A DNA stretch of 38,618 nt from assembly GCA_964448985.1 (NCBI GenBank), contig CAYVBI010000003.1, positions 1 to 38,618 of the forward strand, read 5' to 3'. Every line of letters begins with the position of its first letter. The first letter of the stretch is position 1. Made by a program: the position numbers and the translations under genes. The notes beneath the pieces are model-generated. The model saw nothing but the letters and a program-made list of their open reading frames with translations, did not search any database and was not told the origin of the DNA. Of the stretch, positions 3,916-30,630 are shown in pieces. Source of the DNA: an uncultured Dehalococcoidales bacterium. Lineage in GTDB: Bacteria; Chloroflexota; Dehalococcoidia; GIF9; UBA5629.

Positions 3916-4493
3916 GGTCCTCCAGCAATGATCCGCCGCGCCTGTCGAAACTCAGGAGAGAGTGCGAAGTCCAGGCATAGTACCAGCACGTGGATGGGAC
4001 GCACCTGCAGGTCGCCGGAGACATCCCCCTCCAGAAACATGTCTTCCTCAAAAGCGGGCTGAATCAAGACTACGTCGTTAAACCTCTGGTTTAAATACAA
4101 AACGGGCGGTATCAGAAGCCCGGCCAGCATGCCGGTATAATAATCGTCTCCCAGGCTTACTCTTAAATCTGATTGAATAGACTGTACCTTCACCCGCCGG
4201 AATATATGTTTGATCAGCAGTTTGATCCTGTCTCCAAGGCCTTTGACCTGGACAGCTTCAACCACGCGGGATATCCGGTATGTGCCTTCTCTTTCAGCCA
4301 CAGGTCTGGCCGGTTTATCTCTCCGGGCGCGTCCTGTCGACAAATCCCACGAAAGAAGACCGAAAAGGAATTGAATACGCGCGTTGAAGACGGCGCCACC
4401 ATGGAAACTGGCCGACAGCCGGATCCCCAGCGGTAGTACCAGCAGCAGTAATATAATGGCAAGTACTGAAAGAGCGATGATGAGCAGGGCCAA
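3900..4493 (-). CDS. DUF2953/YtfI-like membrane protein
   Basis: N-terminal TM helix (ALLIIALSVLAIILLLLVLPLG). Lies immediately downstream of a YtfJ/GerW homologue, as in the Bacillus ytfI-ytfJ pair. Apparent TTG start 6 nt after the gerW-like stop. Confidence 0.5.
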   Translation of the reverse strand: MALLIIALSVLAIILLLLVLPLGIRLSASFHGGAVFNARIQFLFGLLSWDLSTGRARRDKPARPVAEREGTYRISRVVEAVQVKGLGDRIKLLIKHIFRRVKVQSIQSDLRVSLGDDYYTGMLAGLLIPPVLYLNQRFNDVVLIQPAFEEDMFLEGDVSGDLQVRPIHVLVLCLDFALSPEFRQARRIIAGGPCKKR

Positions 4494-4499
4494 CGGTTA

Positions 4500-4874
4500 C
4501 TACTCCCTCTTGCGTTCGCCCCACCTGTCAGCGATCTTCTCAACCACACCCGGGACCTTGTCACCCAGCTTCTCGAGAGCCGCGGCCACGCTGCTCTTGA
4601 TAGGCTCTATGCGCACCCCTTCCTTATCTATCACAATTATGGCGATAGGCCTCATGCCACCTGCGCCACCTGCACCGCCCTTGAGGCCGTCACCGCTTTG
4701 TTTGGCATCACTTTTTCCCGCCCCTCCAGCCGCGCCGAAACCGAAACCCATACTAAGCAACGGTATGAGAGTTGTTTCACCTACGGTGATCGGTTCACCG
4801 ATGACCGTCTTGCTGCTGAGAACCTTCTCGATCTGGCTGATGGTGGTCCTCACCATGTTTTCAACGTCTTCCAT
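4500..4874 (-). CDS. GerW/YtfJ-family sporulation/germination-associated protein
   Basis: VIGEPITVGETTLIPLLSMGFGFGAAGGAG ... GGAGGAGGMRPIAIIVIDKEGVRIEPI matches the Spore_YtfJ pattern (from memory). SD aggggg lies 8 nt upstream of the ATG. Confidence 0.75.
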   Translation of the reverse strand: MEDVENMVRTTISQIEKVLSSKTVIGEPITVGETTLIPLLSMGFGFGAAGGAGKSDAKQSGDGLKGGAGGAGGMRPIAIIVIDKEGVRIEPIKSSVAAALEKLGDKVPGVVEKIADRWGERKRE

Positions 4875-4964
4875 AATGGTACCCCCTGATCAACGGACTA
4901 TTATAATGTTGTATATTCTGTATTCTACATCAATCATAAACGGCAGGGCGAAACAGTATATCCC

Positions 4965-5660
4965 TCATTTCGTCGCGTGATATATCTCGAGATTGCCGAT
5001 ATCGATCCACTGCTCTTTAAATGGGTAAACCATCACGGTGTCGATGCCGACCAGGTGGGTAATAAAAAATCCCAGGTTATCCTTTACGGCTTGTTCGCAG
5101 AATGCGCTTATAATGGGAAATACCCTGGGCGGCAATATCCAGCAGGCCGTGGCCACAAGGCTGGTTTTAGGCGCGGCCGGCTTCTCCTCGAGCTCTATGA
5201 TCCTGTCGCCCTGGATCTTCACCACTCCATACTGCGTAGCTTTGGAAGGGTGGCCTACGTCATATACGGCCACGAGAACGTGCCGGCCATCGTATGCCGC
5301 TAAAAAGCTGGCCAGGTCAAACTCGAAATAATTGTCGGCGCCGAAAAGCAGCAGGTCCTCCGTTAAATTCTTCTGTTTTATCCAGTAGTTCAGCGAACCA
5401 ATGGCCCCCAGCTTCTCATCCTCCGACCTGACGTTCTCAACGCAGATAGTGATCTCCCGGTTCTGCCTCACGCTCCATTCCCGGAAATCAGGCTCAAACT
5501 TCATATTCACATTGACCAGTATTTCGATGCCGGGGGGTATCTTATCCACGATGTGATCGATCATAGGTTTGCCCTTATACGGTAAAAGGGCCTTGGCCCG
5601 GTTCATCGTCAACGGGTAAAGCCTGGTCCCGAAACCACTGGCGAGGATCAAACACTTCAT
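4965..5660 (-). CDS. sugar-phosphate nucleotidyltransferase (NTP_transferase family)
   Basis: MKCLILASGFGTRLYPLTMNRAKALLPYKGKPMIDHIV is the classic G-x-G-T-R-L nucleotide-binding loop. The track start at 5666 is TTG; the ATG at 5660 is preferred. Confidence 0.8.
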   Translation of the reverse strand: MKCLILASGFGTRLYPLTMNRAKALLPYKGKPMIDHIVDKIPPGIEILVNVNMKFEPDFREWSVRQNREITICVENVRSEDEKLGAIGSLNYWIKQKNLTEDLLLFGADNYFEFDLASFLAAYDGRHVLVAVYDVGHPSKATQYGVVKIQGDRIIELEEKPAAPKTSLVATACWILPPRVFPIISAFCEQAVKDNLGFFITHLVGIDTVMVYPFKEQWIDIGNLEIYHATK

Positions 5661-5779
5661 CTGCAAATAATTCCGTATCGCTGATCAAGCTTATATTGAA
5701 TTTGAATTTTACTCCACCCTATATCCGGTTATCAATTATAATTGTGTAAGCTGTTTACCAGGCCTGGTTTAAAAATTCC

Positions 5780-6550
5780 ATGAGTATTCCGATCAAACGT
5801 AACCGCCGCCTTGCCCTGATAGGGGAAGGAGAGATCGACCTTCAGGGAAAGCCTGTGAGGTATACGCTGAAGCAAAGTCAGCGAACCAGGGGGATCAGGC
5901 TCGAGGTCCGCAGCGAAACAGGTCTGACCGTGGTTGTTCCCAGGAAGTACACCCAGCAACAGGTCACGGATATACTGCGGCAAAAGTCCCGCTGGATACT
6001 CAAACACCTGCCGGACAGCAAAGAGGTTCAAATGCCACTTTTTACCCATGAGCTCGGCCAGGGCGATAAGCTGCATTTCATGGGCAGGCCGATCGAGATT
6101 AACATCAGTGCCGGAAAATCTGCAACATCCTCGGCTGTACTGGATGGCAATAAACTGCTGGTCTTAACCGGAGCGAGAGACGGCGCTATACCCGGAATTC
6201 TGGAGAAATGGTACCGGCAACAGGCTGCAAATGTCTTCAGGCAAAAGGCCGGCAGCTTCCAGAAGATTATGGGTTTACACTACAGCACCATCTTCATACG
6301 TGGGCAGAGAACACGCTGGGGCAGCTGCTCACCTGCCGGTAATCTGACACTCAACTGGAAATTGCTGATGGCGCCCGAAGAAATCATCGACTACGTTGTT
6401 ATTCACGAACTGGCGCACCTCAAACACATGAACCATTCGAATAAATTCTGGGATATAGTGGGGCAATATTGCCCGGGCTGGAGGGCACATCGCAAATGGC
6501 TTATAACACATGAAGATGAGCTCAAGGCGCGCGCTTCTTTTAAGCTATAA
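5780..6550 (+). CDS. YgjP-like (DUF45, M48-type) metal-dependent hydrolase
   Basis: RTRWGSCSPAGNLTLNWKLLMAPEEIIDYVVIHELAHLKHMNHSNKFW carries the HExxH zinc motif typical of DUF45/YgjP. Confidence 0.8.
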   Translation: MSIPIKRNRRLALIGEGEIDLQGKPVRYTLKQSQRTRGIRLEVRSETGLTVVVPRKYTQQQVTDILRQKSRWILKHLPDSKEVQMPLFTHELGQGDKLHFMGRPIEINISAGKSATSSAVLDGNKLLVLTGARDGAIPGILEKWYRQQAANVFRQKAGSFQKIMGLHYSTIFIRGQRTRWGSCSPAGNLTLNWKLLMAPEEIIDYVVIHELAHLKHMNHSNKFWDIVGQYCPGWRAHRKWLITHEDELKARASFKL

Positions 6551-6577
6551 TCTTCAATATCATCACTGGAGGTGTCC

Positions 6578-6916
6578 ATGAAAGTACATCATTACCGCGA
6601 AGTCGAAGCTGTGGAGGCCGCTGCCGGCGTGCGTATGCATGTTGTAGCGGGGCCGAAGGAGGGTGCTCCCAATTTCATTATGCGTGTCTTTGAGATCGAG
6701 CCGGGCAGCAACACGCCCTTCCATCAGCACGACTGGGAGCATGAGATTTTTATACTTGAAGGACCTGCGGCGGTCAAACATACGGATGGGGAGACGCCGC
6801 TCAAGCCGGGGCATGCCATTTTTATCCCGGCCAATGAAATGCACGGCATTCTCAATAAGGGAGACCGGACCGTCAAACTGATCTGCGTTATACCCAACGT
6901 AGATAAAAAGCAATAG
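6578..6916 (+). CDS. cupin-domain protein
   Basis: GSNTPFHQHDWEHEIFILEG ... GHAIFIPANEMHGILN matches the two cupin motifs. ggagg SD at 6568-6572 favours the ATG at 6578 over the track GTG at 6572. Confidence 0.7.
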   Translation: MKVHHYREVEAVEAAAGVRMHVVAGPKEGAPNFIMRVFEIEPGSNTPFHQHDWEHEIFILEGPAAVKHTDGETPLKPGHAIFIPANEMHGILNKGDRTVKLICVIPNVDKKQ

Positions 6917-7014
6917 CCTCTCTCCACATCCTTGATATTGTTTGACATGGGCTTTGAACAGGGTTTAACATATATCTTTGTTGTGTATTTGTTCACCTTT
7001 GAGAGAAATTGCTG

Positions 7015-7605
7015 ATGGCTTCGAAATCATCCCTCGATAATAAACCGCTGGAGATCAGATGGCATGGGCGTGGCGGTCAGGGTGCGATCACCGCTGCCAA
7101 GATTATTGCGGAGGCAGCGTATGCCAAAGGCTACAAGGGTGTAACCGCCGCTCCGTCCTTCGGGGCAGAGAGGCGCGGTGCGCCTGTCAGCGCTTCAACC
7201 AGGATATCCAGCGAACCGGTGCTGGTCGTATCGCAGGTCGAGCATCCAGCCATAGTAGTTGTGCTCGATCATACCCTGCTCAAGTACCCGGATGTCATCC
7301 AGGGCCTGGGCAAGAACGGGTGGCTGGTGGTAAATTCCCCTCTTTCGCCCAGGGAACTCGGGCTTAAAGGGGAGTTCAACATCGCGACCGCCGACGCTAC
7401 CAAAGTATGTCAGGACCTCGAGTTGATAGTAGCGGGGCTGGTAATTGTCAACACCGCCATATTGGGAGCACTGGTACGAGCTACGAAAATTGTGGATATT
7501 CCAACGCTGGAAAAGGTTGTGCGCGAACGTTTTTCCCGCAATACGGTGGACATCAATCTGGCAGCGATAAATAAGACTTACGAGATAACTAAAGTAGGCA
7601 AATAG
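7015..7605 (+). CDS. porG: 2-oxoacid (pyruvate-type):ferredoxin oxidoreductase gamma subunit
   Basis: IRWHGRGGQGAITAAKIIAEAAYAKGYKGVTAAPSFGAERRGAPV is the gamma-subunit signature. First gene in a gamma-delta-alpha-beta order. The 2-oxoacid substrate is not determinable from sequence alone. Confidence 0.85.
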   Translation: MASKSSLDNKPLEIRWHGRGGQGAITAAKIIAEAAYAKGYKGVTAAPSFGAERRGAPVSASTRISSEPVLVVSQVEHPAIVVVLDHTLLKYPDVIQGLGKNGWLVVNSPLSPRELGLKGEFNIATADATKVCQDLELIVAGLVIVNTAILGALVRATKIVDIPTLEKVVRERFSRNTVDINLAAINKTYEITKVGK

Positions 7606-7615
7606 GATATTCACC

Positions 7616-7912
7616 ATGGGTACCAGGGAATGTAACCACATCTGCGACGAATCATCGCCCGGCATCGGCGAGGCGGGCCGCACCGGCGAGTGGCGCACTC
7701 ACGTTCCGGTGATAGACGACAAGAGATGCACGGCTTCAAAATTGAATAAGCCGACCTGCTTCCTCTGCTGGCTCTATTGCCCCGAAGCAGTCATGACCAA
7801 GGCGATACCACCCACTATAGACCTGGAATACTGCAAGGGATGCGGCATCTGCGCACAGGTATGCCCGGTGCAGGCTATTACCCTGGTCCCCGAAGAAAAA
7901 AAACTGAGCTGA
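7616..7912 (+). CDS. porD: 2-oxoacid:ferredoxin oxidoreductase delta subunit (2x[4Fe-4S])
   Basis: Two ferredoxin motifs: CFLCWLYCPEAV and CKGCGICAQVCPVQAI. Lies between the gamma and alpha subunits. Confidence 0.85.
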   Translation: MGTRECNHICDESSPGIGEAGRTGEWRTHVPVIDDKRCTASKLNKPTCFLCWLYCPEAVMTKAIPPTIDLEYCKGCGICAQVCPVQAITLVPEEKKLS

Positions 7913-7918
7913 TATCAG

Positions 7919-9139
7919 ATGGCAGTACAGAGAAAATCAAACATGCATATCCTCGACGGCAACCAGGCAGCCGCGATAGCGGCCAAGATGAGCCGGGTAC
8001 AGGTAGTGGCCGCTTATCCCATTACTCCACAGACACCACTCACGGAAAAGCTCTCGCACTTCGTGGAGGATGGCCAGCTCAAGGCCGAGTATGTCGCCGT
8101 TGAAAGCGAGCACAGCGCCATGGCGGTATGCACCTCGGCCTCCACCGTGGGCGCACGCGCTTTCACTGCCACCAGCTCACACGGGCTGGCATACATGCAC
8201 GAGATGCTGCACTGGGCCGCCGGCGCTCGTCTTCCCATTGTCATGGCCTGTGTAAACCGCGCCATCGGGGCGCCCTGGAATGTTCTTAACGACCAGCAGG
8301 ATTCGATCTCGCAGCGTGATACGGGTTGGATCCAAATATACTGCCGCAACAACCAGGATATACTTGACACGATTATACAGGCATATCGCATAGCCGAGAG
8401 CGTTTATGTGCCCGTCATGGTCTGCTACGACGGATATATACTATCCCATACCGAGATGCCGGTCGATATACCCGAGCAGGTGGACGTGGACCGCTACCTG
8501 CCACCTTATAAACCTCACACTTCGCTGGACCCGGACAATCCCAAGAACTATAACCTGGTTACGCTGGCCAATCCACGAGTTGGTGTGGACGGCAAGCTCT
8601 GCCATGGCTATATGGAGCTCAGGTACCTGCTGCAGGAAGCTCTTCAGAACTCCAGGGAAACAATCCTGCAGGCAGGAAGGGAATTCAACGATATATTCGG
8701 ACGCGATTATGCATGTATGTTCTGGGAAGAGCGTAATGAGGATGCCGAGATCACGATCGTCGCCATGGGAAGCCTGGCCTCTGAAGCGATCGTGGCGGCG
8801 GACATGCTGAGAGAAGAAGGCATCAAGGTGGGCGTGTTGGGGTTGCGTGTATTCCGCCCCTTCCCCAAGCAGGATGTCGTACAGGCCCTGCGTAAATCAC
8901 GTCTGATCGTGGTTTTCGATAAAAATATCAGCTACGGCTCGGAAGGCGCTACCTGTTCGGAGATCAAATCGGCGCTTTATGGCACATATATCAACGCCGC
9001 CATCAGGAATTTCATCGTTGGATTGGGCGGCCGCGATGTCAAAGCCCGTGAGCTTGCTGAAGCTACCAAGAAAGCCATATCATCCCTGAAAGAGACGGTG
9101 ACCAATCCGGATTACCCCGAATGGATCTGCCAAATCTAA
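7919..9139 (+). CDS. porA: 2-oxoacid:ferredoxin oxidoreductase alpha subunit
   Basis: LDGNQAAAIAAKMSRVQVVAAYPITPQTPLTEKL ... ESEHSAMAVC is typical of the POR/VOR alpha N-terminal domain. Confidence 0.9.
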   Translation: MAVQRKSNMHILDGNQAAAIAAKMSRVQVVAAYPITPQTPLTEKLSHFVEDGQLKAEYVAVESEHSAMAVCTSASTVGARAFTATSSHGLAYMHEMLHWAAGARLPIVMACVNRAIGAPWNVLNDQQDSISQRDTGWIQIYCRNNQDILDTIIQAYRIAESVYVPVMVCYDGYILSHTEMPVDIPEQVDVDRYLPPYKPHTSLDPDNPKNYNLVTLANPRVGVDGKLCHGYMELRYLLQEALQNSRETILQAGREFNDIFGRDYACMFWEERNEDAEITIVAMGSLASEAIVAADMLREEGIKVGVLGLRVFRPFPKQDVVQALRKSRLIVVFDKNISYGSEGATCSEIKSALYGTYINAAIRNFIVGLGGRDVKARELAEATKKAISSLKETVTNPDYPEWICQI

Positions 9140-9151
9140 GGAAGAATTGAA

Positions 9152-10057
9152 TTGAAAACGAATGCCGTTAACCTGATTGAGAAAGAGTGGATCTTGCCGG
9201 GCAATCGCACCTGCCCGGGATGCGCTCTCTCCCTGGCATACAGGCACACCCTCAAGGCTCTTGAGGGACAGTGCATTGTCACTGTGCCTGCCAGCTGTGC
9301 AACCGTCATGCATGGTATGTACCCGATAACCGCTGTGAACGTACCCTGCGTTAATACGCCTTTCGCTTCCACCGGCGCTTCAGCTACCGGACTGGTGGCG
9401 GGGCTCAAGGCGCTGGGCAGGAAAGGAATAACCGTTCTGGCATTCGCCGGAGATGGCGGCACACATGATATCGGCATACAGTCGTTAAGTGGCGCGGCTG
9501 AGCGTCAATATGATTTCATGTATATCTGCTACGACAACGAAGGTTATATGAACACCGGCAACCAGCGTTCGGGTTCGACGCCGCTGGGCGCTGTGTCGGG
9601 GACCACACCGATTCTGGGCAAGCAGCAATATCAGAAAGACATGACGGCCATCATGGAGGCGCATGGACTACCCTACGTGGCCACCTGTTCAGCCTCCTAT
9701 CCGTTGGACCTTTACGAAAAGGTTAAAAAGGCAAAAACCATTGAAGGGACCAGGTTTATTCACATACACACACCTTGCCCGCCGGGATGGCTGTTCCCCT
9801 TTAGCGATACCATTAAGTTCGGCGAGATGGCGGTCGAGACCGGCCTTGTCGTCCTCTACGAGATCGAGGACGGCATCTTCAGGCTGACCTCCGCCAGCGA
9901 ATCACTGGCCCGCAAAGGGGGCAACCTGCAGCCTGTGCGCGAGTACTTCAAGTCTCAGGGCAGATTCAAGACCATAACCGAAGAGCAGATCGATGAGCTC
10001 CAGCAATGGGTCAATGCCCGCTGGAAGCAGTGCCTTAACAGGGCCACTAACCTTTAA
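9152..10057 (+). CDS. porB: 2-oxoacid:ferredoxin oxidoreductase beta subunit (TPP-binding)
   Basis: CPGCA near the N-terminus and the TPP motif FAGDGGTHDIGIQSLSGA ... YDNEGYMNTGNQ. TTG start with aaggaag SD 7 nt upstream. Confidence 0.9.
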   Translation: MKTNAVNLIEKEWILPGNRTCPGCALSLAYRHTLKALEGQCIVTVPASCATVMHGMYPITAVNVPCVNTPFASTGASATGLVAGLKALGRKGITVLAFAGDGGTHDIGIQSLSGAAERQYDFMYICYDNEGYMNTGNQRSGSTPLGAVSGTTPILGKQQYQKDMTAIMEAHGLPYVATCSASYPLDLYEKVKKAKTIEGTRFIHIHTPCPPGWLFPFSDTIKFGEMAVETGLVVLYEIEDGIFRLTSASESLARKGGNLQPVREYFKSQGRFKTITEEQIDELQQWVNARWKQCLNRATNL

Positions 10058-10118: not shown

Positions 10119-10148
10119 TTGACAAGCACCACCTCATCTTGATAGACT
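10119..10148 (+). promoter_or_regulatory. sigma70-like promoter for the Fe-S paralogue array
   Basis: TTGACA (10119-10124), 18-nt spacer, TAGACT (10143-10148). Lies about 60 nt upstream of the ATG at 10207 and 60 nt after the porB stop. Confidence 0.45.
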
Positions 10149-10206
10149 GCATGCAAATATCCTGCACACAAATTATTTGGTGCAAAAGTATATTAAGAGG
10201 TGTGAG

Positions 10207-11259
10207 ATGGTTGATCCGGTCTATGGGAAATTGGCGGGCGCCCTTAATGCTCGTTCGACTGCTTTCCCCGCCGTCAAATGTGATGAATTCTACGACCTTG
10301 TAGGATTCCTCTTCACTCCGGAAGAGGCCACCATCTTTGTGGCTATGCCGCTGGGGCTGAGCCGTGTTGAAGAGATTGCTGTAAACATGCCCTCCGAGGA
10401 CTTGAAAAAGCTGGAGGGACAGCTTGATGTCATGGCTGACAAGGGGCTGATACATATCCGCGAGAGGGAAGGGGTAAAGCTGTACGAGGCCCTGCCCTTT
10501 GTACCGGGCATCACCGAATTTCAACTCATGAGAGGAATAGTCGATGACAGGCACAAGAAGATCGCCACGTTATTGAAAGACTATTCGAAAGCTATGATCA
10601 GGACCATGCTGTCGGCCGATGCTCCTCCCCTCGAATCCTCGGCGCCCGGCCGCAAGGTGCAGGTGGACCAGGATATCGACAATAAGAGCACGATTGTGCC
10701 CTTCCATGAACTGAAAGAGTTGCTGTTGAAGACGGAGTATATCTCCGTGGGAACATGCATCTGCAGACACCAGGGCGCGTTGCTGGGCAGACCCTCGTCC
10801 AAGCCGGTCAATAACTGCATGGTGCTGGGTGAGTCGGCAAAATTTGCAGCGGAAAGGGGATTCACAACACGTCTGACCAAGGAAGAGGCCATCAAGCGCA
10901 TCGAGGAAGCGGAGGAAGCGGGCCTCATTCACACATTCGCCAACAGCCCTGACAGGTTCACTAACCTGCTGTGCAACTGCTATAAGGACCTGTGTCTGAT
11001 CACCCGCATGACGAGCAAATCTCCCGCACCCAGCTCAGCCGTGAACGCCAGGTACCTGGTCACGATAAAGGCAGATGACTGCACCGGCTGCGAGGCCTGT
11101 GTACCGAGGTGCCAGATGGATGCTCTCAAGATGGTTGAAGGCAGACTACTACGGGACGAGATACGCTGTATCGGCTGCGGCATATGCATGTGGGTTTGCC
11201 CCACCGATGCGCTCGTTCTGGAGCCCAGGCCGGCCAGCAGAATTCCCCTGCGCGGCTGA
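10207..11259 (+). CDS. Cys-rich Fe-S protein, paralogue 1 (C-terminal 2x[4Fe-4S] ferredoxin domain)
   Basis: CTGCEACVPRC and CIGCGICMWVCP ferredoxin motifs, plus upstream CICRHQG...NCMVLG...CNCYKDLC. Start moved to the ATG at 10207 (SD aagagg at 10195-10200), which makes the N-terminus MVDPVYGKL collinear with the other two copies. Confidence 0.8.
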   Translation: MVDPVYGKLAGALNARSTAFPAVKCDEFYDLVGFLFTPEEATIFVAMPLGLSRVEEIAVNMPSEDLKKLEGQLDVMADKGLIHIREREGVKLYEALPFVPGITEFQLMRGIVDDRHKKIATLLKDYSKAMIRTMLSADAPPLESSAPGRKVQVDQDIDNKSTIVPFHELKELLLKTEYISVGTCICRHQGALLGRPSSKPVNNCMVLGESAKFAAERGFTTRLTKEEAIKRIEEAEEAGLIHTFANSPDRFTNLLCNCYKDLCLITRMTSKSPAPSSAVNARYLVTIKADDCTGCEACVPRCQMDALKMVEGRLLRDEIRCIGCGICMWVCPTDALVLEPRPASRIPLRG

Positions 11260-11289
11260 CCACGTTAATAATAATCATGGAGGATGATA

Positions 11290-12345
11290 ATGGTTGATGC
11301 TATTTACGACAAGCTGGCCGCCGCACTGAATGCGCGCGGGACGACCGTGCCTTCGGTTATTTGCCAGGAATACTACGACCTGGTCCAGTTTCTGTTCACG
11401 CCCGAGGAGGCTGCAATAGCCTGCGCCATGCCCATAGAGTATGCGACAGCGGAAGAGATAGCGGCGAATCTCGGGACGAAGGACATCAGGAAATTGGCGA
11501 CACAGCTCGATGGCATGGGTGATAAGGGCCTGATCCATATCAAGGAAACCGGCGGTAAAAAACTCTACGAGGGGTTGCCTTTCGTGCCCGGCCTGATTGA
11601 GTTCCAACTCATGAAAGGGATTGTCGACGATCGCAGCAAACAATGGGCCGCCCTTTTAGCCGCTTATTCCAAGGCTGTTAAGAGAGAATTCATGTCGGGC
11701 AAGCCCATTAAAATTGAAAAATCGGCTCCCGGCAGAACAGTTGCTGTAGGTAAGGAAGTCCGGCAACTCGCCTGTGTAATCCCCTACAAGGAGATGAAAC
11801 AACTGATCCTCGATACCGAGCATATCGCGGCCGGCACCTGCGTCTGCAGGCACCAGGGCAACCTGCTGGGCAAACCGAGCTCCGAACCCATGGGGAACTG
11901 CATGGTCTTCGGGGAGTCGGCGCTATTCTCGATCGAACGCGGTTTCACCAAACAACTGTCCAAGGATGCAGCCCTGAAGATACTGGACGAGGCTGAGGAA
12001 GCCGGCCTGGTCCATAATTATGTCAACAATCCCGGCCAATTCACCAATCTGTTGTGCAACTGCTGCGGGTGCCACTGCTTTATCCTGAGGGGCGCCAAGA
12101 ACGCCCCGGCTCCCAGCCAGATGGTCAATCCCCGATATCTGGTACATGTTAATGACAAGGAATGCACCGGCTGCGAGGCCTGTATCGAACGGTGCTGGAT
12201 GAAAGCCCTGAAAATGGAAAACGGCAAGCTCGTGCGTGAAGAGATACGCTGTATAGGATGCGGCATTTGCATGTGGGCCTGCCCCACCGATGCGCTCTAT
12301 CTCGAACCGAGGGAAGCCGGCAAGGCGCCGCTCCAAAAGTGTTGA
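11290..12345 (+). CDS. Cys-rich Fe-S protein, paralogue 2
   Basis: Collinear with paralogue 1 and identical at well over half of positions by eye. Motifs CVCRHQG, NCMVFG, CNCCGCHC, CTGCEACIERC, CIGCGICMWACP. SD ggagg at 11279-11283. Confidence 0.8.
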   Translation: MVDAIYDKLAAALNARGTTVPSVICQEYYDLVQFLFTPEEAAIACAMPIEYATAEEIAANLGTKDIRKLATQLDGMGDKGLIHIKETGGKKLYEGLPFVPGLIEFQLMKGIVDDRSKQWAALLAAYSKAVKREFMSGKPIKIEKSAPGRTVAVGKEVRQLACVIPYKEMKQLILDTEHIAAGTCVCRHQGNLLGKPSSEPMGNCMVFGESALFSIERGFTKQLSKDAALKILDEAEEAGLVHNYVNNPGQFTNLLCNCCGCHCFILRGAKNAPAPSQMVNPRYLVHVNDKECTGCEACIERCWMKALKMENGKLVREEIRCIGCGICMWACPTDALYLEPREAGKAPLQKC

Positions 12346-12375
12346 TACGCATCAACAAAATTATAGGAGGAGATA

Positions 12376-13428
12376 ATGGTTGAACCTGTCTACGAAAAAT
12401 TGATACCCGTACTCAATTCACGCAGCACTTTTCTGGTCCCCTGTATCAAGTGCGACGAGTTTTTTAACATGGTTGCTTATATGTACAGCCCCGTCGAGGC
12501 AGAGATCGCCTGCGCCATGCCCTACGAATTCGCTACAGCCCGTGAGATTTCAGCCGATATCCCGGGCAGCCATCCTGAGAAGATCGCCGAACACCTGGAG
12601 ACCATGGCAAACAAGGCGCTGATACATTCGAAAAAAGAAAACGGAGAGACGCTCTACGAGCTCCTGCCGCTTTTCCCGGGCGCCATGGAGCTTCAATTCT
12701 GGCGCGATGACAAGGAGTATCTGGGAAAGCTGGATGTCCTGCTCGGCCAATACCTGGTAGCGATGTGGGGCCTTCGGAAATCCGGCGCCCCGATCGTAAC
12801 CGATACCACGTCTACCACCAGAAAAGTAACTGTCGGGCAGGAGATCATGAGCCGGTCCACCATTATTCCCTACTTGGAGATGAAAGAGCTGATCAAGCAG
12901 AGTGAGTATATCGGTGTTGCGCTCTGCCATTGCCGCCAACTTGGTGAACAATGGGGCAGGCCATGCTCCAAACCCATGGATAACTGCATGATATTAGGAT
13001 CGTCCGCTCAATTCACCATCGAAAAGGGATTAACCAAACGTCTTAATGTCGAGCAAGCACTTCATATACTGGATGAAGCAGAAAAGGCCGGGCTGATACA
13101 TCAATACGCCGATACGCCCGATCACTATTCCAATATTCTGTGCAACTGTTGCTCATGTCATTGTATAGCGCTCAAGGGCTATAAAAAGTCTCCGGTCCCC
13201 AGCCAGGCTGTCATAGCACGTTACCTGGTCAAGATCGACGATGAAGCCTGCACAACTTGCGAGGCCTGTCTGGAAAGGTGCCAGATGGATGCATTGAAAA
13301 TGGACGGAGGCAAGCTCACGAGGGACGAATCGCGCTGTATTGGCTGCGGGCTATGTATGTACGTCTGCCCCGCTGAGGCATTGTCCCTGGAGAAGAGGCC
13401 TGCTGGCAAAATACCTCTGAGAACATGA
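12376..13428 (+). CDS. Cys-rich Fe-S protein, paralogue 3
   Basis: Same architecture: CHCRQLG, NCMILG, CNCCSCHC, CTTCEACLERC, CIGCGLCMYVCP. SD aggagg at 12366-12371. Confidence 0.8.
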   Translation: MVEPVYEKLIPVLNSRSTFLVPCIKCDEFFNMVAYMYSPVEAEIACAMPYEFATAREISADIPGSHPEKIAEHLETMANKALIHSKKENGETLYELLPLFPGAMELQFWRDDKEYLGKLDVLLGQYLVAMWGLRKSGAPIVTDTTSTTRKVTVGQEIMSRSTIIPYLEMKELIKQSEYIGVALCHCRQLGEQWGRPCSKPMDNCMILGSSAQFTIEKGLTKRLNVEQALHILDEAEKAGLIHQYADTPDHYSNILCNCCSCHCIALKGYKKSPVPSQAVIARYLVKIDDEACTTCEACLERCQMDALKMDGGKLTRDESRCIGCGLCMYVCPAEALSLEKRPAGKIPLRT

Positions 13429-13438
13429 AGACCGAAAT

Positions 13439-14068
13439 CTAATCCTTCTCTTTATCCCGTTTTGCAGCGCGCTCGCGCGCCCAGCGATGTATCTCATCCA
13501 GGGCCGGCGGCGCCACCATGAATACGTCGATATCCTGGGGGAACTGGACTAAATGCCCTTCTCGAATGAAAAGCAGGGCTACATCACCGGGTTTTAGCGT
13601 CTCATCGATGGTCTTGCCGATAAACTGGTAGCGTTTCCGGGAAGCTTCTCCGTAGGCTTCGTAAACCTGTTTGGCCACTTTTTCGCTGATAAGTCCGATC
13701 ATCATGCAACGTTCCCAGTCCATGGTCTCCTCGAGCAACTCGCTGACCTCGATACACTTTAGGGAAGCGGACTCCGCGCAGCGGTTGGTTATCATCCCAT
13801 GACTTTTAGGATGAAGTTCCTTCAGCATCTCTAAACCGCCTTCACCCTCCTCACTGACCGTTTCATGATAGATCAACGTCACATGCCCCAATTTAGCTTC
13901 GAGCTTTGCCACCATCTCATCGACCTGCTGCCAGTATTTCTCATAAAGCTCGAGATATTCCGCCGGTGAGTTTTTACCCGCATAAACCAGGGGCACCTGC
14001 AAGATCTTTCTGCTATCCTTGAAGCTGTCCACTTCAGGTTTTTCTACTTTACCCAGTTCCTGTGACAT
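13439..14068 (-). CDS. hypothetical 209-aa cytoplasmic protein
   Basis: Long ORF with SD gaggag 7 nt upstream of the ATG. No TM segment and no family I recognise. Lys/Asp/Glu-rich C-terminus. Confidence 0.55.
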   Translation of the reverse strand: MSQELGKVEKPEVDSFKDSRKILQVPLVYAGKNSPAEYLELYEKYWQQVDEMVAKLEAKLGHVTLIYHETVSEEGEGGLEMLKELHPKSHGMITNRCAESASLKCIEVSELLEETMDWERCMMIGLISEKVAKQVYEAYGEASRKRYQFIGKTIDETLKPGDVALLFIREGHLVQFPQDIDVFMVAPPALDEIHRWARERAAKRDKEKD

Positions 14069-14237: not shown

Positions 14238-15446
14238 ATGGATTTCGACCTTGGTGATAAGACGGATCAACTGCGCAAGGAGATACGTAAATTTGCCCTT
14301 GCTGAGGTAGAGGGAAAACCCTATCACACCGCCATGCTTGAGGAAGAGAGCGCGGACGAGGACTGGGAATTTTCACTTTCCATATCCAAGAAGCTTGCAC
14401 AAAAAAAATGGCTTTGTATGAACTGGCCGGAACAATACGGCGGCATGGGCGCGTCTTACTGGGAACAATTCGTATACTCTGAAGAGGCAGGCTATTATGA
14501 GATCCCCGGCACCAGCATGGGCATATCCGGTACAGGCATCAACGGACCCAGCCTTATGCTGTTCGGCAGCGAAGAGCAAAAACAGAAATACCTGCCGCTG
14601 ATAGCCTCGGGGGATCCCGATGGGATATGGTGCACCGCTTACAGTGAACCTGATTCTGGCTCCGACTATAATAAGATCAAGACCATCGCGATCAGGTCGG
14701 GAGACGACTATATTATCAACGGGCAGAAAGTGTGGACGAGTTGCGCCCACCGCGCTCGCTGGTGCTGGCTGGCATGTAAAACCGATCCAACGTCAAACAA
14801 GATCCACAAAAGCATGAGTATTATCATCGTAGATATGAAGAGCCCGGGCATTACTACCAGGCCTCTCATCAATCTATCCGGTATTCACAGTTTCAACGAG
14901 GTCTTTTTCGACAATGTAAGGGTGCCGGCTTCAAACCTGGTGGGGGAAGAGAATAAGGGCTTTTATATGTTGATCCCCGCCCTGGCAATCGAGAGGCTCT
15001 CTCTGGCGCCCCACGTTTTAGGTGTTGGACGCCGCATTCTGGAATTGCTTGTCCGCTATGCCAAAGATACCAACCATCAAGGTAGACCTATGTCTACCGA
15101 TCCGGTGGTGCGCCATAAGCTGGCCGAGCGCGCCTTAGAGCTTGAAACGCTGCGCCTATTCGGTTTGGAGATCATGTGGAAAATGAGCACGGGTAAAATG
15201 CCGGGCTACGAGGCTGCCAGGAACAAACTCATCTGCAATATCGTCACCGACAACATGGCTAAAACCGGGCTCGATATCCTGGGCGCATATTCTCAGGTAA
15301 GCCCCGATTCCAGGTGGGCCAGACTGCACGGACGTTGCCAGAATTTGTACATGGTCAATATGGGGTGGTTCAGCGCTGCCGGGACCATGGAAATACAAAA
15401 GAATGTTATCGGACAATTCAAACTCGGCCTGCCGCGCGCCTATTAA
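14238..15446 (+). CDS. acyl-CoA dehydrogenase family protein
   Basis: WCTAYSEPDSGSD... QKVWTS ... and a C-terminal helical domain ending GTMEIQKNVIG match ACAD signatures. SD ggaggg. Confidence 0.85.
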   Translation: MDFDLGDKTDQLRKEIRKFALAEVEGKPYHTAMLEEESADEDWEFSLSISKKLAQKKWLCMNWPEQYGGMGASYWEQFVYSEEAGYYEIPGTSMGISGTGINGPSLMLFGSEEQKQKYLPLIASGDPDGIWCTAYSEPDSGSDYNKIKTIAIRSGDDYIINGQKVWTSCAHRARWCWLACKTDPTSNKIHKSMSIIIVDMKSPGITTRPLINLSGIHSFNEVFFDNVRVPASNLVGEENKGFYMLIPALAIERLSLAPHVLGVGRRILELLVRYAKDTNHQGRPMSTDPVVRHKLAERALELETLRLFGLEIMWKMSTGKMPGYEAARNKLICNIVTDNMAKTGLDILGAYSQVSPDSRWARLHGRCQNLYMVNMGWFSAAGTMEIQKNVIGQFKLGLPRAY

Positions 15447-28338: not shown

Positions 28339-30630
28339 TCACGTCAGTTTTCGCAGGTCCTGCTGCTCGATAATGTCTATTTTTTGTTGCATAGCAAACT
28401 GTTTGGCTTGTGTGCTTATCTCCGAAAAACCCAGGAAAACCTTGTTGCGGATACCTGCATCAAAGGCCGCGGCATCGAACTTCGACAATTCATCCAGGCC
28501 AAGCGGCTGACCGGTTTCGCTGCCGATGCCGATCGCAATCGTAGGTACCACTATCTTATCATCACGCCTGGCAAAAATATCGAAAATATGTTCGATACCT
28601 GATTTGCCGAGAATCAGTGCCCTCTCATATACTTCATACCCCTTATTGCGAAGGAACCTCACGATGATGCCACGCGCATTGGCCGCCACCGAACCGGAAT
28701 GGTTTGCTCCCGCTTCCACCCTGCTCTGCATTCCGATATTGGAACGGTCGAGGTGAGTGATATCTGCAACCACCGTCGCCAGAGTTTTAGCTTCAAATGC
28801 TCTGATCATTTGCCGGCCGGCGAAATTCAATGCCTCCTGCCCAAGCTTGGGAATGGCTATCACCACTTTATAGTTTATCCCGATATCATAAGCCCGTGTA
28901 TCGAACCTGAAAAGCGATTCAAGCCCAACTTCCGGTTCCCCCGATGGTGCAACAAGTATACCTATACCGAGATTGATCTTGGTGATAATATCGTCCCTGA
29001 TGGCAAGCACATCCACGGTATGCACTGCACCCGAACGTCCCGTCAGCTGAGCCAGCTCGTGGACCTGATAGCCCTGGTGTTTCAGGAAATCGACAAGCTG
29101 CGTCTTAGGTTTAAGCTGGAATTCCAGCCACCCCTTTTTATCGGGGCTGAACTGGTACGAATATGCCTCAACTTCTTTCAGCTCTTCGGAAGCCCATATT
29201 TTACGTGTCTTCATATTGCGCCATTTCACGACCGGTACAGTAAAGACCTCAGTGCAATCCTGGCACCTGTAATGGATGCCGACATTGCGGTAATCGGTGC
29301 CGATCAATCTTAAATCCTTTCGGCACTTCGGGCAGACGTACCTGCTATCCTGTTTAAAATCCTTGTCAAGCCCCACGTATCCACAGGAAAAATGCTCGAC
29401 AAGTTGTCCTTTAATTATGTTGGACGAGTCACAGCGCGGGCACCTTTCAATAGGAACAAGTTGAAATAGCCCGTCAGGGTCAACATAAAATTTTTCATAC
29501 GATTGCTTGAGCAATATGCCATTATCGGCGAGAGATTCGAGAATGTTTAGCGTGTCAATCTCGGAAGTATCAAGCAGGCTGCTAACTGTCGGATAAGCGA
29601 ATCCCATTTTATAACTGAAATCGACCACAGGGTTGATATCAGGAAGTTTACCGCTTACCAGCGCATCTACAAGCTTGACGACTCTCGCGTCCTCGAGAAC
29701 TGCCGCACCAGCATCTTCCTGAGCAGGCTGCGCCTTGGCCACGTAAGCAGATTGTTGTGCCGGAGGATTAATCACGATGGGTGAGGGCTGCTTTTTTATA
29801 TCGCGCCCAAGCGGAGGTACCACTATGGGTGCTTGCTCCCGCATCTGAGGCGGCGCTGCCGGCCTGGGTACTATCACGACCGGCTGCTCCAACGACTCCG
29901 GTGTCTGGTAAACCTGTGCTGCAGGCATAGGCGGGGCCGGCTGTACATATGCCTGTGGTTGCACATATGGCTGTTGTACAGGTGGCGCCTGTGGCTGCGG
30001 AGGAGCTTCGTACTGCTGGGGCTCTGGCCGAGGCCTGATGATTATCCTTTCCTGTCCCGAAGCCGCCTGTGGTTGGGCATCCATTTCAGGTCTGACCGGT
30101 GCAGGCTGTGGCTGGCTGTATACCGGCCCGCGGGCAGCAGGCTCCGGTGCACGTACCGGCGCACCCGCTTCCTTCTCCTTGGGCCTTGACCTGGTCGGAG
30201 GTCTAACAACTGTTTCCCGGGCAGCGGGCGCCGCCTGCTTCGCAGCCGCCTCTTCAGCGGCGCCCTCAGTGCCGGGCCGTCTCAGCAATGCTTTGATGCG
30301 CGCCAGCAACTCCCTCGGGCTGATGGGTTTGCGTAAATAAAGGTCAAAACCCAGTTCCTCAACACGAGACCATGCATCCGAGTCCGGAATGGTTCCGAGA
30401 AGAACAATCAATGCGCTCTGCTGTTGCCTGATCTTGAGACACGCTTCATAACCGCTGACATCGGACAGCTCATCGTCAATTATTATGACATCGTAATTGG
30501 TTTTGTCCATCATCACCAGACCGTCAAGACACCCCGACGTTCCGTTTGCATCAAGGCCGCTCTGTTGCAGGATCTCGACGTTCTTCTCTTTTAAGACGGA
30601 ATCGCTTGAAAGAAAGAGAATCTGACTCAT
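28339..30630 (-). CDS. atypical response regulator: REC + long Pro/Gln/Ala-rich linker + multi-Cys zinc-ribbon region + two tandem degenerate Mrr/PD-(D/E)xK-like domains
   Basis: REC domain at residues 1-118 (acceptor D52 in VIIIDDE, T80, K101-P). Linker at about residues 120-305. Cys motifs CPRC...C...CPKC...CQDC at residues 397-459. Repeat units at about 509-615 and 650-760 share FL..GY.V.E.A..G.SG..H..D..A.RDD......IGI. SD gaggga lies 6 nt before the ATG. Confidence 0.75.
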   Translation of the reverse strand: MSQILFLSSDSVLKEKNVEILQQSGLDANGTSGCLDGLVMMDKTNYDVIIIDDELSDVSGYEACLKIRQQQSALIVLLGTIPDSDAWSRVEELGFDLYLRKPISPRELLARIKALLRRPGTEGAAEEAAAKQAAPAARETVVRPPTRSRPKEKEAGAPVRAPEPAARGPVYSQPQPAPVRPEMDAQPQAASGQERIIIRPRPEPQQYEAPPQPQAPPVQQPYVQPQAYVQPAPPMPAAQVYQTPESLEQPVVIVPRPAAPPQMREQAPIVVPPLGRDIKKQPSPIVINPPAQQSAYVAKAQPAQEDAGAAVLEDARVVKLVDALVSGKLPDINPVVDFSYKMGFAYPTVSSLLDTSEIDTLNILESLADNGILLKQSYEKFYVDPDGLFQLVPIERCPRCDSSNIIKGQLVEHFSCGYVGLDKDFKQDSRYVCPKCRKDLRLIGTDYRNVGIHYRCQDCTEVFTVPVVKWRNMKTRKIWASEELKEVEAYSYQFSPDKKGWLEFQLKPKTQLVDFLKHQGYQVHELAQLTGRSGAVHTVDVLAIRDDIITKINLGIGILVAPSGEPEVGLESLFRFDTRAYDIGINYKVVIAIPKLGQEALNFAGRQMIRAFEAKTLATVVADITHLDRSNIGMQSRVEAGANHSGSVAANARGIIVRFLRNKGYEVYERALILGKSGIEHIFDIFARRDDKIVVPTIAIGIGSETGQPLGLDELSKFDAAAFDAGIRNKVFLGFSEISTQAKQFAMQQKIDIIEQQDLRKLT
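28351..29106 (-). repeat. internal protein-level duplication (two ~105-aa nuclease-fold-like units)
   Basis: Unit A (28786-29106): LVDFLKHQGYQVHELAQLTGRSGAVHTVDVLAIRDD...LGIGI...GLESLFRFDTRAYDIGI. Unit B (28351-28683): IVRFLRNKGYEVYERALILGKSGIEHIFDIFARRDD...AIGIG...GLDELSKFDAAAFDAGI. Confidence 0.75.
29716..30273 (-). repeat. coding low-complexity Pro/Gln/Ala-rich linker
   Basis: Examples: QPQPAPVRPEMDAQPQAA, PQPQAPPVQQPYVQPQAYVQPAPPMPAAQVYQ, VPRPAAPPQ. In frame within the 763-aa ORF, with no regular DNA period. Confidence 0.85.

Follow-up and report, generated by a model that had tools for sequence, protein, structure and literature searches.

Three tandem ferredoxin-domain proteins with an undescribed six-cysteine middle domain beside a 2-oxoacid:ferredoxin oxidoreductase in an uncultured Dehalococcoidales bacterium

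Introduction

What is the role of three similar genes for iron-sulfur (Fe-S) proteins that lie one after another just downstream of the genes for a ferredoxin-reducing enzyme? The question is raised by a stretch of 38,618 nucleotides (nt) from an uncultured Dehalococcoidales bacterium (contig CAYVBI010000003.1 of assembly GCA_964448985.1), called the window here, in which a four-subunit 2-oxoacid:ferredoxin oxidoreductase is followed by three paralogues, copies 1, 2 and 3, referred to jointly as the trio. An earlier note on this DNA, made without database searches, described three collinear genes of 350, 351 and 350 codons with Shine-Dalgarno sites and 30-nt spacers, could place their products in no characterised family, and took a triplication next to such an enzyme as a sign of dedicated electron carriers or redox sensors. 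The reading that we favour, and to which we give about an even chance, is that the trio codes for soluble multi-cluster Fe-S redox proteins fed by ferredoxin, with a novel middle domain as their working site.

Architecture of the three proteins

The trio starts 149 nt past the end of porB, the gene for the beta subunit of the oxidoreductase (Table 1). Open reading frames and alignment bear out the three genes as first described: the spacers between copies 1 and 2 and between copies 2 and 3 are exactly 30 nt each, a Shine-Dalgarno site (AAGAGGTG in copy 1, GGAGGA in copy 2, AGGAGGAG in copy 3) lies 5-7 nt ahead of each ATG, and the proteins are fully collinear, copies 2 and 3 being 59% and 50% identical to copy 1, respectively. 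Compared with a congener, copy 1 has a ratio of nonsynonymous to synonymous substitution rates (dN/dS) of 0.078 and copy 2 one of 0.073; the copies are under strong purifying selection and are real, maintained genes.

Each protein is composed of an acidic winged helix, a long helix, an alpha/beta cysteine domain, called the middle domain below, and a C-terminal 2x[4Fe-4S] ferredoxin domain of the clostridial type. This three-part architecture of the family is collinear in all three copies, together with the invariant cysteines C184, C186, C204, C256, C258, and C263. The AlphaFold2 model of copy 2, built with 51 homologues, has a mean predicted local distance difference test score (pLDDT) of 90.7 and a predicted template-modelling score (pTM) of 0.87; in it the winged helix (approximately amino acids [aa] 25-95) precedes the long helix (aa 114-135), which is followed by a poorly ordered linker that leads to the alpha/beta domain (approximately aa 160-280). 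The only part of the proteins with a match in Pfam or NCBIfam is the ferredoxin domain, which takes up the last ca. 60 aa and scores 30-47 bits with Fer4 (PF00037) in the three copies, against a cut-off of 21.1. The first 285 aa have no relative in the PDB by sequence, and a Foldseek search of the PDB with the whole model gave no global fold match, only local ones, to ferredoxin domains and to winged helices of the MarR/ArsR/TrmBL2 type. The best structural matches of the ferredoxin domain are the delta subunits of POR and of oxalate oxidoreductase (root-mean-square deviation 1.1-1.3 Å). The middle domain modelled by itself (48 sequences, pLDDT 83.6) has no fold relative in the PDB according to Foldseek (best E 0.88, template-modelling score 0.19) and no sequence relative there in a profile search (best E 0.92). 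A search of the literature for the family brought up nothing relevant. The profile and structure searches that the earlier note had proposed thus identify the N-terminal module as a winged helix by local fold match and lead to no known enzyme family, so that its failure to assign the proteins stands.

The fold of the N-terminal module is also reflected in weak profile matches among 67 diverse members of the family (TrmB in 30, MarR_2 in 18), nearly all of them below the Pfam cut-offs. Across the family its isoelectric point has a median of 5.0 and its net charge is -4, whereas for the copies of the window the charge ranges from -5 to -7; the equivalent of the recognition helix is neutral to acidic (median charge -1), and the module has no basic surface of the DNA-binding kind. 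Because the winged helix is acidic, it is unlikely to bind DNA.

Cysteine ligands of the middle domain

The cysteines are arranged as C184-x-C186, C204, and a group from C256 to C263, followed by the motifs CxxCxxCxxxC and CxxCxxCxxxCP of the ferredoxin domain, whose ligands C292/295/298/302 and C321/324/327/331 are found in all three copies. This agrees with the order given in the earlier note (a C-x-C motif, a lone cysteine, a dense cluster, and a terminal ferredoxin domain). Its description of the N-terminal 180 or so residues as devoid of cysteine was wrong: every copy has C25, a residue that does not vary within the close clade, and further cysteines are found in this part of copy 2 (C45, C162) and copy 3 (C23, C46).

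Outside the ferredoxin domain, the six cysteines listed above are invariant among the 67 diverse members, and the same positions, two CxC motifs among them, are ca. 100% cysteine in a larger sample of 455 members. In the latter, which is phylogenetically biased, four more positions co-vary, namely C197, C259, C261, and 262, occupied by histidine or cysteine. All four are present in 309 members and lost together in some 50-60, the rest being partial; at positions 259 and 261, both ligands are present in 364 members, both absent in 60, and mixed in 31. Complete loss is nevertheless seen both in the orthogroup of copy 1 (S-Y-D-L/R in place of the ligands) and in a group from Thermodesulfobacteriota (CNCDRWHC). 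The trio itself covers the range: copy 1 has only the six-cysteine core, with S197, Y259, D261, and L262 at the auxiliary positions, copy 2 has the core and three auxiliary ligands (C259, C261, H262) with S197 in place of cysteine, and copy 3 has the core and the full set of C197, C259, C261, and H262. We read the middle domain as combining an invariant six-cysteine core site with an optional auxiliary site of four ligands. The extra ligands also lend support to the earlier view that the proteins have cysteines to spare for an additional cluster.

Distribution of the family and age of the copies

The non-ferredoxin part of the proteins, i.e., their first 280 aa, has matches in 1579 clusters formed at 50% identity (E of 0.001 or less); with few exceptions these are proteins of 340-440 aa, and named sources annotate them only as '4Fe-4S binding protein', 'RnfB', 'PreA', or 'ferredoxin'. 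The family is thus a large one, and it occurs in strict anaerobes. The genome records come mainly from Dehalococcoidia, and also from Thermodesulfobacteriota, Smithella, Syntrophomonadaceae, Pelotomaculum, Clostridiales, Actinobacteria, and Leptospiraceae. The middle domain is present in 42 of 151 Dehalococcoidia genomes, with up to nine matches per genome; the genome to which the window belongs, fragmentary and 64% complete, holds seven full-length copies. Dehalococcoides mccartyi has the middle domain in isolation, in the form of a 193-aa protein annotated as 'hypothetical' or 'ferredoxin-like'. In one locus of this type (L099:3871-4452) the stand-alone domain is flanked by the genes for formate-tetrahydrofolate ligase and aspartyl-tRNA synthetase; it has kept C197 and lacks the equivalent of C204.

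In a maximum-likelihood tree the three copies fall into three orthogroups with 99-100% support, all older than the divergence of the genomes concerned. The copy-2 type is found in every locus linked to the oxidoreductase, the types of copies 1 and 3 being variable, so that one, two or three genes are found per genome. A recent triplication is ruled out by this tree, and the tie that the earlier note drew between triplication and the adjoining ferredoxin-reducing enzyme falls with it, as the copies belong to old orthogroups of which relatives keep one to three and did not arise in a local, POR-bound event.

Linkage to the oxidoreductase

The enzyme encoded upstream of the trio consists of four subunits, gamma, delta, alpha, and beta. 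Subfamily models exceed their cut-offs for the gamma and delta subunits, and the substrate-specific models for pyruvate and 2-ketoisovalerate stay below theirs for all subunits, for which reason 'POR/VOR-type' is the safe name. How far the family depends on such a neighbour was surveyed in 80 loci of species-representative genomes, which are not phylogenetically independent. Of the close orthologous loci (identity of 71% or more), 12 have enough flanking sequence, and in every one of these the oxidoreductase is found immediately upstream; in five more distant loci it is nearby. In the remaining 63 loci it was not found in the fetched flanks, many of which are short, so that the absences of neighbours are soft. 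The linkage to POR/VOR/KOR genes that the earlier note had suggested surveying is therefore present in these close orthologues and five other loci, and general linkage is not seen. Elsewhere, the recurrent neighbours are genes for acyl-CoA synthetase, acyl-CoA dehydrogenase, enoyl-CoA hydratase, and SDR, MFS, TetR, and MarR proteins. One distant copy of the genome under study (C41:5931-11214) lies amid two activase ATPases of the BcrAD/BadFG type, recognised by eye, three genes resembling family III CoA-transferases, and one resembling nitronate monooxygenase, i.e., in surroundings of the CoA-ester radical or reductive kind.

These data bear on a first alternative, in line with the view of the earlier note, in which the trio would be dedicated carriers or adaptors without catalysis that take electrons of the oxidoreductase to three partner enzymes, e.g., the acyl-CoA dehydrogenase encoded downstream at 14238-15446. 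The resemblance of the ferredoxin domain to oxidoreductase delta subunits speaks for it, as do the position of the oxidoreductase immediately upstream in every close orthologue, the retention of the acyl-CoA dehydrogenase gene downstream in seven of these loci, and the age and distinctness of the three orthogroups. However, the oxidoreductase already owns a delta subunit, most members of the family have no such enzyme nearby, and the promoter of the trio is separate. Moreover, a conserved 280-aa non-ferredoxin part with an invariant six-cysteine site exceeds the needs of a wire, and the middle domain can stand alone, as it does in D. mccartyi. We hold pure carriers to be possible but rather unlikely. 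The adjacent oxidoreductase is a plausible donor of electrons, though not one that the family requires, and it is possible that the trio accepts electrons derived from it.

Promoter, operator-like repeats and the MarR gene

The candidate promoter that the earlier note gave for the trio itself withstands comparison. It matches the consensus in 10 of 12 positions and has the extended -10 TG, and a comparison of 12 orthologous loci showed it conserved in every one, irrespective of the upstream neighbour (porB, an SDR gene, or a MarR gene in divergent orientation). Across the region, matches to the promoter consensus do not exceed chance (8 found versus 7.2 expected). The promoter is accompanied by operator-like repeats, two direct and one inverted half, located 3' of the -10 sequence and conserved among the orthologous loci; promoter and repeats together precede the first family gene every time, and a tandem occurrence of the repeat motif is found at this site only in the whole genome. 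In sister genomes, a MarR gene is divergent at the promoter of the trio, with the same motif on the MarR side. The genome under study has an orthologue of this gene, 81% identical to its counterpart in the sister genomes and split over the ends of two contigs (the end of C339 and the start of C426), which is preceded by TTGTATACAGAT...TTGTGC, a sequence resembling the operator repeats of the trio. In C426 the MarR fragment is followed by a remnant similar to the C-terminal tail of the family copy in C285. It may be proposed that the MarR protein binds the repeats and controls the trio.

The repeats also bear on a second alternative, that of transcription factors responsive to redox state or to metals. 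The winged helix would then bind DNA, and the clusters would report the state of the ferredoxin pool or a metal. Such a role would suit the TrmB/MarR-like fold at the N-terminus, the presence of operator-like repeats in the trio's own promoter, and the co-transcription of one subfamily with hypB-hypA. It is at odds with the acidic to neutral character of the winged helix and of its recognition-helix equivalent, with the number of up to nine matches per genome and the tandem arrays of genes, and with the separate MarR and TetR genes that adjoin family members and fit the repeats better. In addition, we know of no Fe-S regulator with a 2x[4Fe-4S] ferredoxin domain. We regard this explanation as very improbable; the idea of a DNA-binding regulator, and with it the redox sensor of the earlier note in so far as it implied such a role, was rejected on account of the acidic winged helix.

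Links to nickel chaperones

In one subfamily, hypB, hypA and the gene of the family form a conserved cassette with a spacing of ca. 13-22 nt, which is present, with spacers of about 22 nt and amid otherwise unrelated neighbours, in four of the five metagenome loci sampled and also in several genome loci (the cassette loci are L058:1717-3832, L095-L098 at about 3970-6100, L100, and L102). In L058 the cassette converges on a gene for a 668-aa protein of the carbon monoxide dehydrogenase (CODH)/prismane family. In the survey of genomes, hypA adjoins a family gene in 6 of the 80 loci, belonging to several phyla. Genome G029 carries the cassette and a separate canonical hypA-hypB-hypF cluster; in a small tree the single HypA of the genome under study falls into the family-linked clade and not with the hypF-linked copy from G029. 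The genome under study also has, on another contig (C108:3841-5974, minus strand), a distant family copy followed by an ATPase of the CooC/MinD type with an N-terminal cysteine motif and a CxC motif. A CooC-like ATPase is also found next to a family copy in a congener, and adjacent or near in two more genomes. CODH was not found by tblastn in the 64%-complete genome under study.

From these links a third alternative can be drawn, in which the middle domain would be a nickel-containing Fe-S centre or a scaffold for metallocentre assembly, loaded by HypA/HypB or by chaperones of the CooC type. It is favoured by the recurrence of the cassette in the one subfamily and of hypA beside family genes, by the fact that the cassette of G029 is additional to the canonical cluster, by the position of the own HypA in the tree, by the CxC-bearing CooC-like ATPases beside other copies here and in the congener, and by the two CxC motifs among the six invariant cysteines. 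Against it, no chaperone gene lies near the three copies in the window, and the client of the chaperones could be another neighbour. HypA needs no new client either, since almost every genome of the class with HypA has a [NiFe]-hydrogenase as well, which rules out that HypA and HypB exist solely for this family; in the class sample, hypA is adjacent to a family gene in only 2 of the ca. 25 genomes with both. Because CooC-like ATPases are common, their adjacency is only mildly above chance. A nickel centre or an assembly scaffold is in our view quite unlikely. The same holds for its boldest form, in which the family would be a new Ni-Fe-S enzyme class of anaerobes whose six cysteines hold a nickel-containing or otherwise non-canonical centre, loaded by chaperones and fed through the auxiliary cluster and the ferredoxin domain, an idea that we consider improbable. 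Were it true, the three copies would be variants of such an enzyme, differing in whether the auxiliary cluster is complete, partial or missing.

Comparison with known systems

The trio belongs to the ferredoxin-domain superfamily through its last 60 aa only. With the delta subunits of 2-oxoacid:ferredoxin oxidoreductases, such as PorD, and of oxalate oxidoreductase it shares both CxxCxxCxxxC motifs in this part and the close superposition given above. However, the PorD_KorD model TIGR02179 has a cut-off of 60 bits and gives the trio no more than 25-29, which leaves it outside that family; a delta subunit is a stand-alone protein of ca. 80-100 aa, while the proteins of the trio have 350 aa, of which the likeness covers 17%, the other 285 aa being without a counterpart. 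The likeness to RnfB is likewise confined to the ferredoxin domain. TIGR01944 scores 30-36 bits, in the ferredoxin part only, against a cut-off of 68.7, so the trio falls outside this family too; the N-terminal Fe-S domain of RnfB was not detected (no Pfam match in aa 1-280), and no membrane anchor was seen on reading the sequences of the trio proteins.

The best sequence matches in the PDB are the polyferredoxins MvhB and FwdF (E 6e-20 to 2e-15), in which the single ferredoxin domain of the trio is matched to repeated units. Unlike the polyferredoxins, the proteins of the trio have one such domain and not 6-8 in tandem, and their N-terminal 285 aa remain unmatched. With the TrmB, MarR, and ArsR regulators they share the winged-helix fold of the N-terminal module, but this module is acidic and fused to ca. 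250 aa of Fe-S domains.

Metal centres with six cysteines are known from ferredoxin:thioredoxin reductase (a cluster plus a disulfide), the double-cubane cluster protein, the P-cluster of nitrogenase, and the A-cluster of acetyl-CoA synthase. The six invariant cysteines and the CxC motifs of the middle domain recall these centres, an analogy by ligand count only, as the domain has no similarity in sequence or fold to any solved structure. In particular, the PDB fold and profile searches gave no similarity of the cysteine domain to the Fe-S enzymes acting on thiols and disulfides, represented by the catalytic subunit of ferredoxin:thioredoxin reductase and the CCG domain of HdrB.

Other features of the window

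The coordinates of the features are collected in Table 1. A small single-domain cupin gene is situated just 5' of the promoter-like site of the oxidoreductase genes; it is missing from the corresponding position in one related locus (L008). Convergent with the end of copy 3 is a gene for a 209-aa protein without a match in Pfam or NCBIfam, which is also found just 3' of family genes in 12 related loci. Farther downstream, a receiver of the response-regulator kind, a TackOD1 output domain and a restriction endonuclease domain of the Mrr type are united in one 763-aa protein, which is encoded next to a GAF histidine kinase and a regulator of the OmpR type.

Table 1. Coordinates of the trio, its control region, and other features of the window
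Feature	Position	Strand	Remarks
Cupin gene	6572-6916	+	small, single domain
Promoter-like site of the oxidoreductase	6942-6971		
POR/VOR-type 2-oxoacid:ferredoxin oxidoreductase	7009-10057	+	four subunits (gamma, delta, alpha, beta); Pfam/NCBIfam
porG (gamma)	7009-7605	+	
porD (delta)	7616-7912	+	
porA (alpha)	7919-9139	+	
porB (beta)	9152-10057	+	
Promoter of the three-gene unit	10119-10148	+	TTGACA (10119), 18-nt spacer ending in TG, TAGACT (ends 10148)
Operator-like repeats, 3' of the -10	10148-10185	+	TGCATGCAAAT 10148-10158; TGCACACAAAT 10163-10173; inverted half TTTGGTGCA 10177-10185
Copy 1	10207-11259	+	350 aa, 15 Cys; P1 orthogroup
Copy 2	11290-12345	+	351 aa, 20 Cys; orthogroup found in every POR-linked locus
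Winged-helix module of copy 2	11353-11580	+	aa 22-97; TrmB/MarR-like fold; acidic
Cysteine-rich alpha/beta middle domain of copy 2	11767-12141	+	aa 160-284; six invariant Cys
2x[4Fe-4S] ferredoxin domain of copy 2	12142-12324	+	aa 285-345; Pfam Fer4
Copy 3	12376-13428	+	350 aa, 20 Cys
Gene for the 209-aa protein	13439-14068	-	no Pfam/NCBIfam match
Gene for the 763-aa protein	28339-30630	-	receiver, TackOD1, and Mrr-type domains

Discussion

According to the reading that we favour, the ferredoxin domain would be the point of entry for low-potential electrons, donated by free ferredoxin or, without this intermediary, by the adjacent POR/VOR-type oxidoreductase. The electrons would then cross the auxiliary cluster where one is present and would end at the six-cysteine centre of the middle domain, the presumed working site, at which a small substrate would be reduced or a partner enzyme served. 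The winged helix would recognise a partner or a ligand and not DNA. The differences at the auxiliary site, taken together with a working site of this kind, suggest that each paralogue would have a potential and a partner or substrate of its own. The unit would be governed by a ligand-responsive repressor of the MarR type, as is typical for substrate-specific catabolic genes.

Several points weigh against this reading. The six-cysteine site could serve pure electron transfer; the types of cluster are suggested by the counts of ligands alone and are not told by the sequence, and the substrate, the partner, and the cofactor content are hypothetical. The longer members of the family (420-445 aa), scanned for informative domain fusions, contain none. 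The linkage to the oxidoreductase is clade-specific, being limited to the close orthologues and a small number of other branches, and the short flanks make the absences of other neighbours soft evidence as well. Finally, the trio is a transcription unit separate from the oxidoreductase genes; in sister genomes, porB and the family genes can be parted by an SDR gene or by a MarR gene in divergent orientation.

The trio thus represents modular Fe-S redox proteins with an undescribed core domain. Since this domain combines six invariant cysteines with the lack of any relative in sequence or fold, it may be the seat of a cluster or an active site not described before. The widespread family is found in syntrophs and sulfate reducers and, in multiple copies, in Dehalococcoidia, organisms in which the flow of low-potential electrons has been mapped poorly. 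Copies 3, 2 and 1, with a full, a partial and an absent auxiliary site, respectively, constitute a natural series ready for spectroscopy.

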